Assembly: GCA_050239825.1 (NCBI GenBank)
Contig: JBFXGO010000043.1
Span: 1-17,910, forward strand
From: a bacterium
GTDB taxonomy: Bacteria > Hydrothermota > 32-111
Direction: 5' to 3'
Length of the DNA: 17,910 bases
A program made the position numbers. Within the stretch, counting starts at the first letter, position 1; every line of letters begins with the position of its first letter. Below, piece by piece: positions 9,001 through 15,000 of the stretch.

Positions 9001-12000
9001 GAGTAGAAACTCATTGTACCTCGGGAGTAAAAAAGGGGCTTTGCAGAAAGCCCCTTTTTTATTGTTGTTATCAGGTTGATTTCACCAGTGAATCTACTGT
9101 TTCAATCAATTCGTGAATCTCAAACGGTTTTTGAAGGTATGAAACATTTGGCAGTTTGACAAGTTTGTTCAATTGTGAATTCTGGGTTGAAAGCGCGGTG
9201 ACAATCAGATATGTTTTGTTTGGATACCTCGCCACCACCGTTTCAGCGCTATCTCCGCCCATGAGAAAATCCGTCACAATTAGATCAAATATAGATACAT
9301 CAAAATCATTCAAAACGCTTGTTATTTCAGTTTTAGGGCACACATCATACTTTTCAGACAGAATCATCTCTATGAGATCGCACACCTCTTTGTTGTCTTC
9401 AATCACTAAAATTTTTTTCTTGACTGACATAAATCCAATAATATATTTTTTTTCCCTTTTGTCAACAGGAATTGAACTCGGCAGATGATTTTTGCAGAAT
9501 GCTTTCCTTAGTTGAAGAGTCTGAAAATCATAGTTTCGCCGTAAACAATGAAAACTTTTCAAAAAACAAGGATTTTTTGCTTGACTTTTATAAAAAAATA
9601 AAATATCATTATAACAAACTTGAAAAGGAGAGTTAGAATGAGGCTGAAAAGTTTATTTATTTTGATTATTTTACTGCCGATAATGGCATTTGCAGCTTTT
9701 GCAAAACCAACAGACCTTCTGAAGGTTCCAACTGCAGACATACTAAAGAATGGAGAACTTTCGGGAGCAGTATTTCTTTCTGCCGCATCCAATTTTACGG
9801 ATGACAAGGTTCCTTTCGATTACAATGTGGCAGTCTCTTATGGACTCCTGGATATGTTTGACATTACTCTCAACATGTTCACATATCTTGACTATACTCT
9901 CGGAGTTCAGTACAACTTTTTAAAGTCAGGCGGCGCTCTTCCTTCAATGTCAGTGGGTATAAGAAACATTACCTATAGAAAGTACATTGATGAAGGAGGC
10001 GGCGGAGACAGCATAAACAGCGGACTCACAGATTATGCTTATGCGGACAGAGCAGAGGATTGGTTCTCAATCTATTTTGTTGCAACAAAGGACTTCAATA
10101 AATTCGGAAAATACACTGTTGGATTGGGGAGAGGAGAATTTATCGGTTATGGTAGGGGAAGGTACCTCTCAACAGCCGCATTCATTGATGATTCAGTGCT
10201 TTCAGGAGCTACAAATTACATGTTCGGACTCTTCGGTGGAGCGGAGATACCGATTATTCCCAACCTCAATTTTGTCGGAGAAGTTACGGGCAGGGATGTC
10301 AACATGGGTCTTGAATATACAATAGCCGGTTTTAACATCTCCGGCGGATTAACGCATGCAGAGCTATTTACAGCAGGAGACCCAGCTCTCCGGCCGAGAA
10401 TTGATCTCGGTGTCTCATATTCATACTACTTCGGAGGAACGACAAGCAAGAAGGAATCAAACGGAATACTCATAGTGAATATTGTCGACAATACTACAAA
10501 CAAACTTCTTCCCGCAACCATAACTTTTGAAGAGACTGAAATAAAGCCGATACAGGTGGCCAACGGTTATGTCAAAATGCAGATAAAACCGGGAAAATAC
10601 AAAATAAAGATTGAATCAAACAATTACAAATGGCAGAAGAGGGAATTCTCTGTTTCTTCAAATGCCACAAGCGAGATAAACATAAAACTGAACAAGAAAG
10701 ACGACACCGAACAGGTGAATCAGACAAAGGCTGTCGCTTTGGCTAAAGAGGCGAAGGAGAAGCTGAATAAGGGAGACATAGCAGGCGCTCTTTTAAAGCT
10801 TGATGAGGCGCAGAAGCTCTCTCCGGACGACCCTACGGTTCTTGCATACAGGCAGGAAGCCAATACAAAGAGAGCTCAGATGATAAAAACATACAAAGAG
10901 AATGCCTTGATGTATGAACAGAAGGGTTGGGCAAAATCAGCAATTTCCGAATGGAATGCTCTACTTCTGCTTGATAAAAACAATGCTGAGGCAAAAGAGC
11001 ATATAAAGAATCTTGAAAAGGATGCCAATAAAACTGAGACCAAAAAGGATGAAGTGAAGACAGAGACAAAGAAGATTGATCCTGAAAAAGTCTATGAAGA
11101 GGGTTATATGGCGTATCTTGCCGGGGACTATAAAACCGCAATAAAGAAATTTGAAGAGGTTCTAAAGGCAAGTCCTAACCACGAAAAAGCCCAGAAGTAT
11201 CTGGATAAAGCAAAGAAGAGATTGTAATCAACCGGGGGGGATGCAAATCCCCCCCTTTTTTTTATGCTTTTTAAAAACATAGTATCATTGCTTAAAAAAA
11301 CTGCGGCTTCAACAGATGCAGAATTTTATATTGTGGGCGGAGCAGTAAGAGACTATCTGCTGGGAATAGAGGATGTTTCAAATCTTGATATAACTGTCAT
11401 CGGAGGTTTTGAAAATTTCACATCTATTCTATTTGCCGAGTTTAAGATACCTGAAAAGAATGTGAAAATGTCTCTATTTAAAACAGCAGTGGCAGAGCTT
11501 GACGGATTCACCGTGGATATTGTCACTGCAAGGAAGGAATTTTACAGGGATGAGGGAATGCTACCGGAGATTACTCCGTCTAATCTCGAAGATGACATCA
11601 GAAGAAGGGATTTTACGATAAACAGCATTGCTTATGATGTAAGAAAAGATAAGGTGATTGACTTTCTCGGAGGAGCTGATGATTTGAGCAAAAGGATTTT
11701 AAGAGCGAACCGAAGCAGTCTTTTCACTGAAGATCCGACAAGAATATTCAGATTCATCAAATACAGACGAAGATTCTCTCTGATTCCGGACAATGAAACA
11801 TTCAACCAGTTTGATGAGGCACTGAATAAAGATACCCTCTTTGAAAATGTGTCAAAGAGCAGAATCTCAAAGGAGTGGCTGCTTCTTCTTAAAGAGAATT
11901 CCGTTGATTTTTTGATTGATGACCTTAACAGGTCCGGTGTGTTTAAAAGCATATTCAAAAAAGAGATTCTGTGCTCTCCATTGCCTGAAAAAATAAAAGA

Positions 12001-15000
12001 CCCCCTGCTTTCAACTCTGGCTGTATTTTATCAAAATGACACCCCTGTTCTTATCAAGGTAGCCGACACTCTGCTGAATGGAATCAAAAAAAATAAGATT
12101 GAGATGATTGAGAAAATGAAAAGCAAGTCAGGCAAATTTGAAATTCCGTCCGACTAAGGTTTTTTAAAGAATACTGAAATCACATCCATCGTAAAAGCCA
12201 AAACAAAATGAATCACCGCCGCAGGAGCGAAAGTGCGTATCCTGTACACAAGAAATCCGAGAAGAATGCCGCCGAAAAGAGAGGATACTGTTTCAATCCC
12301 GGGCTTTCCTATGTGTGCAAATGCAAATATTACGGACTGCATCAAAACGGCAGAAGAAATGGAACCTGCAGATTTTGAAAAAGAAAATAGCATCGCCCCC
12401 CTGAAGTAAAATTCCCACAAAAAAAAGAAGAAAAGAAATCCGAGTTCATACTGGAAAAATGTCCAACCTCCGTTTTTCATGGCTCTGATCATGGGATAGA
12501 TTTTTGTGAACTGAGGATTGAAAGATGCAAAATAAGCAATTGCGGCGGCGCAGACAGAACAGACAAGAGTCACTATCAAAGCCTCTCTCGCCTTTCCGAA
12601 GGAGAATCCGAGACCCGAGAGAATGAATTTTCTTGTGAAAAGCATATAAGCAATAATTGGAAGTATTGAAAAAATCAAAAGAACATTGATAAGTTCATTC
12701 TTTGAAAAATCCCTCTTTGAACCGTTCAGAGAGATAAGGTAGAAGGCGAAAATAACTGCAAGCAAAGTAAAAATGAAATAAAGAATTTTCACTGCAGGCG
12801 AATTCTCCTCGACGGTTATTATGAAGAGAACCGGAACCGTAAAAAGAACTAGTGTCGAAAAGACTATCCAGAAATAAAACGGATAGAAAAAATTATTATT
12901 GTAAAGAAGAAAGAGAGTCCACAGAGAGAAGAATGCCGTATATAGAGAAAATCTGCTTGTTATAAATTCTCTTAAATCATTGAAGACACTGACAGTGGTC
13001 TCTTTCATTAAGGCTCCTCTCTTTTTTCCGTGTAATCAAAACAGTCCTTATTATCAGGGAATTTTTCCTTTCTGTCAAGGTCAAAGTAGGAATATTCTGA
13101 TGCCGGGTCCCAAAGGATGAAACCGTCTGCATCTGAATCAACAGTTGCCTTTATCTGATTGTTCACATAGTCATCACCCATTCTTGATGATTTCCATTTG
13201 AAATCCTGCAGATACAATATGGTCTTTGTGCCATACTTGCGTATTCTTTTGATTGATTTCTCGCCTGAATTGAAGATTATATCATATGTGCGTTTTTCCT
13301 TGGATTGCGAACTATAGAGCGAATCTGAAAAGTGCGACGGATAGACCATAGGGTAGATGGCATCAGTGACCTGAGCCATTCCTTCAAGCTGCTGCATAAC
13401 ATAGTAGAGTGAATCGAACCAGACAGTATATCCGTAAATATCGCATGAAATTTCAACATTGTAAGGCTTCAATTCGGAGTAGGCCTCTCTCAAAAAGCTT
13501 ATAACTATGTCAAATCCATTCATTCCATTATGCTCCGGAAAAGATAGAGCTCCCTTTACTCCGTCAGTCGGATACCTTATATAGTCAAACTGGATCTCTT
13601 TGAATCCGATTTTTGCAGCCTCTTTTGCCACAGCTATGAGATATTTTCTTACGAAAGGAGAGTAGGGAGAAACCCACAAAGCTCCGGAGGCATCATGAAA
13701 GATATCTCCGCCCGCATATTTTACCGCATACCTGTAGTTCTCTGTTTTTGCCAGTTTATTGTCTTTGAAGCACACCACTCTTGCAATCGGTTTAATTCCG
13801 TATTTTAAAAGAGTGTCTACCTTCTTCTCAATGTCATGCATTCTGTCATAAGATGCTACAGATGAAAATTCATCGGGAAGAAGAACCCCCACTTCGCCTC
13901 TGTCGTACTTGATATCGATTACTGCGGCATTGAAATCATTCTCGCGCATCTTCTGAACAAGCGAGTAGAATCTTGAACCTGATGCGGTATACCTGTTTAT
14001 ATAGATGCCCGAAGTTTTTTCAGCTGAAACAGAGAGAAACGAAAAAAGAACAGACAATAAAATTATTTTGCTATTCATTCAAGAGAGGATTTGTGTAGTA
14101 GAAACGAGTCAGCCCGTTCTGGGAATTCAGATACAAAAAACCCTTATGGGCGATTATATTATAGAATCCTGAAGATGGAATCGGTGAATTTCTTTTATTG
14201 TATATCTTCCATCTCTTTGTCTTCAGGGGGAATATGCCGAAACCCTCCAATGATGTTATGAAGCAATTTTCTCCGTCAAATGCCATGTCATAAAACTCAC
14301 CGAAAAGATTGTTGGGGTATGAAGTGAATTGTTCCTCTCCCTTGAGTTTGATGTGTATATAGGCATTGTCAAGAAGTATTTCCGCTTCATCGGTTTTCAT
14401 ATATTGGTATATGATGAAAGTCGGGAATGGAAATTCAACCTTCGAAAAGCTTGCTTCGCCCAGCTTTGCTTTATATAGAGTATTTTGAGAGACAAGATAA
14501 ACAGTGTCTTTGAAATACTCCACATTTATTACGGAAGTCAAATTGTCTGTTAGCTGGGTGAATTCTCTTGAATCGACATCTATAATGCCCACTCCAAGGT
14601 CATTGGTGACCAAAAAACGGCTGTCATCTACGGGAAATGCCCTGAAGAGTATGGTTCCTCTCTCTTTATCTATAGGAAAGAATCTATTCTTCTCTGTTGA
14701 AAAGTAAAATGCCTGTCCGAATTCGGTCAGAAAGAGAATATTCTTTTTGGAGGCGCATATATAAATCAGCTGATTGTCGGGTATTGCCGTATAATAATCT
14801 GTTCTGAAGAATTCAGAGGTTGTTTTTTCCGGATTCAAGCGGGTGATATTGATTGTGTTGGCTCCTCCAAGCCAGATGCTGCCTGAAGAGTCAAGAGCCA
14901 TTGCCCTTGCATTTAAAGATCCCAAGCCGTAAATGTATTGCTTCTCTTCCTTTGAAAATTTGTTTATCTTGAGAATCCCGGCTCCGTCAGTACCTATATA

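Follow-up and report, generated by a model that had tools for sequence, protein, structure and literature searches.

The DxD motif is the textbook signature by which nucleotidyltransferases are called active or dead. Two described class II tRNA nucleotidyltransferases lie closest to the protein analysed here, the A-adding enzyme of Aquifex aeolicus (PDB 1VFG, 4WBY–4WC7; NCBIfam NF041569) and the CCA-adding enzyme of Thermotoga maritima (PDB 3H37–3H3A, 5HC9). Passages of PMC3925840, PMC11784652 and PMC6468291 treat both aspartates of DxD as essential, which counts against the reading that we prefer below; in favour of that reading, the single mutant reported there to inactivate a class II enzyme, D23A, hits the second aspartate (PMC6468291). 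In PMC2910056, A-adding enzymes are recognized by a CC-adding partner and the signature sRxxxExxxhh, and a passage of PMC11784652 assigns EDxxR or DDxxR to A- and CCA-adders.

We analysed a bacterial DNA stretch of 17,910 nucleotides (the window), in which an A-adding-type gene and its surroundings comprise the following features:

9620..11227, + strand: TPR-containing gene upstream of the A-type gene, a conserved neighbour
11234..11263, + strand: intrinsic-terminator-like hairpin and T run ending at the ATG of the A-type gene
11264..12157, + strand: predicted class II tRNA nucleotidyltransferase of the A-adding type without tail domain, 297 aa (Pfam PolyA_pol, E 6.7e-24)
11381..11389, + strand: motif A, N40-L41-D42 (NxD replacing DxD), with the N40 codon AAT at 11381-11383
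11516..11518, + strand: D85, the inferred counterpart of T. maritima Asp99 and third catalytic carboxylate (same residue in 100 of 100 aligned rows)
11531..11578, + strand: basic/acidic motif R90-x-E92 and the flexible loop needed for A76 addition (R90, E92, Y94 and P101 invariant)
11603..11611, + strand: motif B, RRD (114-116)
11729..11743, + strand: motif D, the EDPTR nucleotide template (156-160)
11858..11890, + strand: SRISKEWLLLL, which fits the A-adding signature sRxxxExxxhh as given in a passage of PMC2910056
12154..13008, - strand: CAAX-protease-like gene, convergent, with a 4-nt overlap with the stop of the A-type gene

The phmmer alignment pairs LLGIEDVSNLDITVIGG of the window protein with T. 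maritima LLGIKNL-DIDIVVEG, so that N40 corresponds to Asp55 and D42 to Asp57; the Asp99 numbering follows a passage of PMC3925840. The predicted structure (pLDDT 95.2) aligned over residues 1-297 with residues 15-355 of the T. maritima enzyme (3h38; Z 24.4, rmsd 3.7, 290 aligned). The head and neck fold with motifs A-E is present, the DxD carboxylate pair of motif A is absent, with N40-L-D42 in its place, and the elbow-binding tail domain is missing, the model covering T. maritima 15-355 alone. By its motifs the protein thus reads as a variant class II tRNA nucleotidyltransferase rather than a canonical member. The flexible loop and the basic/acidic motif of bacterial A-adding enzymes are both present, and SRISKEWLLLL stands against ERVYAEIKEIL in the partner enzyme on contig C11, for which PMC2910056 leads one to expect ERxxxExxxhh. 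Identity as a CC-adding enzyme was rejected because it would need a deletion of the loop. Poly(A) polymerase PcnB was rejected as well: by inspection, the upstream [LIV][LIV]G[RK][RK]F motif is missing, and the TIGR01942 score was 77.5 bits against a cut-off of 305.65.

A first-pass annotation of this DNA had placed Asn at the T. maritima Asp55 position throughout the host genus, and Asn was indeed found in all three genomes (AAT in G000, which carries the window, AAT in G001 and AAC in G002), with Asp in the remaining 11 of the 14 family genomes. It had also confined Asn to the seven closest database homologues; in a set now of 256, Asn again occurred in the seven closest, the rest having Asp (241), Gly (4) or Glu (1) or not being parsed (3). 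The one sister-family genome said to share the Asn was seen (G016), as was a further case in another family (G031). Misalignment or assembly error was dismissed, the register being fixed by flanking residues and the Asn occurring in seven distinct sequences with two codons. Close homologues of the window protein carry WOR-3/Stahlbacteria labels. All seven NxD proteins, at approximately 50–56% identity to the window protein, retain identical residues at every remaining catalytic and specificity position. The core of the A-type enzyme gave pN 0.29 versus pS 0.62–0.81, and since dS is partly saturated, dN/dS is qualitative only. In the one host-genus pair compared, identity was 55% for the A-type enzyme versus 63% for the CC enzyme, and the opposite pattern was found in genus g5.

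We consider it highly improbable that an acid further upstream (D37, E36 or the immediate N-terminal neighbour of the Asn) replaces the missing carboxylate, leaving the site with three acids. An acid does lie 1–4 residues upstream in all seven NxD family proteins, and the residue immediately preceding the first position is acidic in 22 of 52 N rows versus 11 of 125 other rows, the rows being related. However, no one upstream position is acidic in all seven, and G000 has Ser39; the preceding residue is Lys in 47 of 100 Microgenomates-type N proteins, no column gained an acid when 17 non-Asp rows were set against 38 Asp rows of a Microgenomates-type sample, and in the predicted model N40 would open the catalytic strand (40-46).

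CCA synthesis is needed in the family. Among the 46 tRNA genes of G000, 7 end in CCA, 6 in C only and 33 in neither, leaving 39 without CCA, in keeping with an earlier estimate of at most 10 with it. T-arm sites encoding CCA numbered 9/48, 5/37 and 9/44 in the host genus, fractions similar to those elsewhere in the family, which rules out a genus-specific shift to encoded CCA. A loop-less CC-type enzyme with intact DxD is encoded at C11:9827-11143 and is present in 14 of 14 family genomes, as the first-pass annotation had stated; regain of the loop in the host genus was rejected, no such gain appearing in the sequences. The only other nucleotidyltransferase found in G000, described before as an antitoxin type, was a single small Polbeta/NTP_transf_2 protein on C42 adjoining a HEPN-like ORF. 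No class I CCA enzyme scored above the cut-off in 20 genomes, G000 yielding none, and no further candidate A76-adding nucleotidyltransferase was found in G000 (a 99% complete genome). G000 does encode PNPase.

The reported lengths of the A-type enzyme were reproduced: 288–311 aa in 13 complete family genes (in G005 the gene runs off its contig) versus 394–397 aa in four sister-family genes, with 288–317 aa in 37 database members. The tail loss is family-wide and predates the Asn. No separate tail ORF was found in G000, the best weak match being an ORF that we take to be ribosomal-protein-S16-like. The CAAX-protease-like gene sits where the tail would be encoded and is the neighbour in all nine family loci listed. 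The tail loss would be compatible with addition of either A only or the whole CCA. It is nevertheless unlikely that the protein is an active full CCA-adder or repair enzyme in which loss of the tail removed a length gate, so that C is added too, with the CC enzyme retained for the sake of efficiency. Passages of PMC3925840, PMC7947759 and PMC7014341 do describe a C-terminal region of A-adding enzymes that blocks CC addition, and the nearest solved structure is that of the T. maritima CCA-adder. Yet the CC enzyme, with intact motifs, is kept in 14 of 14 family genomes, the A-adding signature is retained, and PMC3925840 argues that specificity is set by neck flexibility and not by the C terminus in general.

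The NxD motif is not peculiar to the host genus. A genome scan revealed at least 44 NxD class II enzymes among 120 matches listed, after removal of 70 N-x-D-x-D matches with DxD intact and 6 non-nucleotidyltransferases; a single spacer length was covered, and the counts are not usable as a frequency. In Microgenomates-type genomes reached through NxD matches, the NxD enzyme was the sole PF01743 match in 16 of 16 (completeness not given), and 73 of 494 sites encoded CCA. An evenly drawn sample of 55 enzymes from this class, nearly always single-copy and with most tRNA ends lacking CCA, had D (38), N (11), E (2), R (2), G (1) or Q (1) at the first position, that is, non-Asp in 17 of 55, and Asp at the second in all 55. 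Encoded CCA was slightly more frequent in the non-Asp genomes (117/508) than in the Asp genomes (48/326). Solirubrobacterales G074, G075 and G154 combine an A-type NxD enzyme with a second, loop-less DxD enzyme and encode CCA at 0/64, 0/55 and 0/49 sites. A single clade for the NxD groups was rejected (p-AU 1.5e-40); they are of independent origin. In many further NxD lineages, most CCA ends are already present in the tRNA genes (32/35, 36/43 and 26/37, for example). The mirror change, DxN, was found in 20 of 78 metagenome matches, of which a single alphaproteobacterial clade contributed 12, in a collection that differs from that of the NxD scan and gives no matched denominator. The two sampled NxD members of this clade have a second enzyme, so that an altered motif can be a sign of redundancy. 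Because NxD recurs in many lineages, sole CCA-adders included, the case for activity is stronger and uniqueness is gone; the earlier interpretation stands as to the division of CC and A addition between two enzymes, the missing tail and the requirement that this enzyme act.

The enzyme might instead be inactive, or nearly so, in the host genus, with A76 supplied by PNPase or the loop-less enzyme and the protein persisting as a tRNA-binding or helper subunit; we judge this improbable, even more so than addition of the whole CCA. In its favour, DxD is regarded as essential in the passages cited (PMC3925840, PMC11784652), a passage of PMC11784652 names PNPase and PAP as backups for A addition in E. 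coli, with PNPase present in G000, and both changed motifs, DxN and NxD, are found in paralogues that are probably redundant. The terminator-like hairpin also abuts the start codon, where a Shine-Dalgarno site does not fit, an arrangement that G000 shows at 2 of its 1114 long ORFs. But a similar hairpin occurs at all 13 family loci with upstream DNA (it is absent from four sister-family loci and G031) and thus also precedes DxD orthologues. The CC enzyme of the host genus has regained no loop, all other catalytic residues are fixed in the seven NxD proteins, and Microgenomates-type sole enzymes with a non-Asp first position must make whole CCA ends.

We therefore favour the reading that the window protein is probably an active, perhaps slower, A76-adding enzyme in which the first aspartate would be dispensable. 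The motifs, the CC partner, the demand of the tRNAs for CCA and the conservation were observed, and the occurrence of the same replacement in enzymes that alone build tRNA ends in other bacteria suggests that the aspartate can be spared. The loop-less C11 enzyme would add C74C75; the window enzyme would then bind tRNA-CC through head, neck and shortened body, without an elbow-binding tail, pick ATP through EDPTR and the loop, and add A76. The ligands of Mg2+ would be D42, D85 and the triphosphate, with N40 contributing no more than the neutral oxygen of its amide. An Asp at the first position would thus help without being required, and the Asn enzyme may turn over more slowly than one with Asp. 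Points weighed against this reading were the DxN paralogues, the mostly encoded CCA elsewhere, 117/508 versus 48/326, 55% versus 63%, and PNPase.

More tentatively, and at rather less than even chances, the first carboxylate could be dispensable generally, with many natural essential CCA- and A-adders carrying Asn, Gln, Gly or even Arg, implying two-carboxylate or partly one-metal chemistry, and the 297-aa protein could be a natural tail-less minimal nucleotidyltransferase that measures or extends tRNA ends without elbow contact, possibly adding the whole CCA. If true, natural single-copy enzymes without the first Asp, in genomes needing CCA synthesis, would revise both the DxD rule and current assumptions about how class II enzymes coordinate metal. 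A natural test of how A-adding enzymes are restricted to A76, by a C-terminal gate or neck rigidity, which is debated, is offered by the tail-less family. GlnD D105N is reportedly a precedent; a literature search for it found none, nor any paper on NxD or Asp-to-Asn variants, which supplementary alignments could already show, subscription papers lying mostly outside the search.

Compared with known systems, the window protein shares with the Aquifex aeolicus enzyme its fold (Z 23.7, rmsd 3.5, 278 aligned), loop type, EDxxR and a CC-adding partner, and differs in its Asn for the first Asp and its lack of a tail. NF041569 is its best NCBIfam match (E 7.8e-30), but at 103.8 bits against a cut-off of 1440, the window protein consisting of one core and falling far short of the model's 880 positions. 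The T. maritima enzyme is the best sequence match (E 4.3e-30) and the best structure match (Z 24.4), with motifs A-D in register; in contrast to it, Asp55 is replaced by Asn, the model stops at about residue 355 of 441, and the host has a CC-type partner. The uncharacterised Microgenomates-type and Solirubrobacterales class II enzymes likewise carry NxD while keeping the remaining motifs, and their genomes, too, need CCA synthesis. Unlike the tail-less window protein, they are of normal length and separate origins, and in the Microgenomates type a CCA-type enzyme stands alone, whereas the window protein has a CC-type partner.

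The window encodes the enzyme under study, with a hairpin at its start:

11264-12157, + strand: class II tRNA nucleotidyltransferase, 297 aa, from ORF translation and a PolyA_pol head
11234-11263: terminator-like hairpin and T run ending at the ATG of this gene, as in 13 of the 13 family loci examined

The top NCBIfam match of the 297-aa protein is the A-adding model, and its nearest solved structures are the Thermotoga maritima CCA-adder and the Aquifex A-adder. Sequence alignment places N40 at T. maritima Asp55 and D42 at Asp57. The Asn reported at Asp55 by the first-pass annotation (NxD in place of DxD) is real: it is found in all three genomes of the genus, through two codons (AAT, AAT and AAC), with Asp in the remaining 11 of the 14 family genomes. 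Among 256 database homologues, the seven closest carry Asn, 241 Asp, four Gly and one Glu, and three were unparsed; close homologues are labelled WOR-3/Stahlbacteria. The A-adding-type homologues P0114, P0117, P0118, P0191 and P0251 have GxD (D/E-F-G-I-D) or ExD. D42, D85, R90, E92, RRD, EDPTR, R163, R200 and E204 are identical across seven of seven NxD proteins, and the core is under purifying selection within the genus (pN 0.29 versus a partly saturated pS of 0.62-0.81).

The partner nucleotidyltransferase (C11:9827-11143 in the source genome, G000) has an intact DxD and ERxxxExxxhh and lacks the loop; loop-less partners occur in 14 of 14 family genomes, with no regain in the genus. By the sequence criteria for CC-adders and A-adders in the consulted passages of PMC2910056, the partner is classed as CC-adding and the window protein as A-adding, which upholds the split CCA synthesis proposed earlier. 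The CC-type enzyme of G001, a second genome of the genus, has RRDFK in place of RRDFT (L306, G001:C24). CCA is encoded in only 7 of 46 tRNA genes of G000, within the previous estimate of at most 10, and no shift toward encoded CCA was found in the genus (9/48, 5/37 and 9/44 pattern sites). Besides the pair, the only other nucleotidyltransferase found was the small MNT-type protein already noted, a search for a class I CCA enzyme found none, and PNPase is present. That the window enzyme is inactive and a backup supplies its function seems distinctly unlikely. The MNT-type gene (L225, G000:C42:3300-4300) adjoins a HEPN-like ORF, an ordinary toxin-antitoxin-like pair. Stand-alone RNase PH had no match in the whole genomes of G000 or G001, and G002, the third of the genus, gave only split PNPase; it was matched in G003, G006, G010, G016 (sister family) and G031 (another family).

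Residues 1-297 of the predicted structure (pLDDT 95.2) superpose on T. maritima 15-355 (Z 24.4, rmsd 3.7). Because the model ends at T. maritima residue 355, read with the domain description in passages of PMC3925840, the C-terminal tail appears to be missing. The 13 complete family genes encode 288-311 aa versus 394-397 in four sister-family genes, as expected from the claimed difference of about 100 aa, and the short form is common to the whole family. A separate ORF for the tail was looked for and not found, and the gene's stop is overlapped by a CAAX-protease-like gene in convergent orientation. Full CCA addition by the window enzyme, freed by loss of the tail, is unlikely. The hairpin-to-ATG arrangement, present in only 2 of 1,114 long ORFs of G000, suggests read-through or a leaderless transcript and low expression. 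Elsewhere in the window, a cluster of five genes ending in a secretin (4583-9006) resembles pilMNOPQ.

We propose that the window enzyme is probably active with NxD and adds A76. The partner would add C74C75; the window enzyme would hold the acceptor arm with no elbow contact, select ATP through EDPTR and the loop, and then add A76. Metal-binding charge would be carried by D42, D85 and the triphosphate, N40 giving a neutral oxygen at most. Class II enzymes are described as holding two Mg2+ with three carboxylates (passages of PMC3925840 and bioRxiv 10.64898/2026.03.02.709036), and in passages of PMC6468291 and PMC11784652 the inactivating single mutant is that of the second Asp, the first being altered only in a double mutant. 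Gly and Arg variants elsewhere suggest that the first-position side chain is dispensable. Replacement of the missing carboxylate by an upstream acid is highly improbable.

NxD is a genus trait, as first annotated, but is not peculiar to the genus, since many lineages carry it. GTDB genomes were pattern-scanned with one spacer length; among the 120 matches listed, true NxD class II enzymes numbered 44, another 70 retained DxD, and 6 were non-nucleotidyltransferases. A tree of 160 rows, from which 20 similar DxD rows had been omitted, requires at least 15 changes of state at the first position, and an AU test (44 rows) rejected a single clade uniting this genus with Solirubrobacterales G074 and the enzymes of Microgenomates type. 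In each of the 16 Microgenomates-type genomes to which NxD matches led, the NxD enzyme is the sole PF01743 match; CCA is encoded there at 73 of 494 sites. One of these enzymes was compared with 120 close homologues, 118 of which have Asn. Two N-clade homologues (P0270, P0284) carry Asp, possibly by reversion. Three Solirubrobacterales genomes (G074, G075, G154) combine an A-type NxD enzyme, which in G075 has an open frame of only 185 aa, with a loop-less DxD partner, and never encode CCA. Microgenomates-type enzymes (L097, L105, L120, L122, L139, L154, L156) lie in 0.7-1.1 Mb genomes whose records are titled uncultured Gammaproteobacteria, titles that may be generic.

Because those Microgenomates-type genomes had been selected by the NxD trait, 61 genomes were drawn evenly from the class of G043, the centre of the sample (match in 56, readable in 55). 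The first position was Asp in 38, Asn in 11 (G043 counted), Glu in two, Arg in two, Gly in one and Gln in one; the second was Asp in 55 of 55. Non-Asp rows, which arose in at least eight changes, keep the other catalytic motifs, with RRE for RRD in four, and a second enzyme is present in two genomes of the sample. CCA was encoded at 117 of 508 sites in 16 non-Asp genomes versus 48 of 326 in 10 Asp genomes. Among loci L310-L338 and L369-L396 of this class are sole CCA-type enzymes with Glu, Arg, Gly or Gln at the first position.

The mirror change, DxN, was read in 20 of 78 metagenome matches, 12 in one alphaproteobacterial clade and two in short open segments; in that clade, two genomes carry another enzyme as well, and their CCA is mostly encoded. 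Most CCA ends are encoded in other NxD lineages too. Because DxN exists, with second enzymes and encoded CCA in some changed lineages, a changed motif alone proves nothing; what carries the case is genomes that need CCA synthesis and whose enzyme is the only one or is non-redundant. These genomes are MAGs of unstated completeness, related ones not being independent. The alphaproteobacterial clade, one of paralogues (12 loci: L086, L100, L117, L130, L257-L296), has RDLTIN with NxD or DxN and is probably a pseudo-enzyme or a new function.

The literature searched, with few subscription papers covered, yielded no NxD or Asp-to-Asn change in this enzyme family. Although not as unique as first thought, the window enzyme belongs to a broader deviation from the DxD rule, one that can be tested. 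In predicted action it is likened to the Aquifex A-adding enzyme and by sequence criteria it falls in the A-adding group, but it differs from canonical A-adding enzymes in its DxD motif and its tail.
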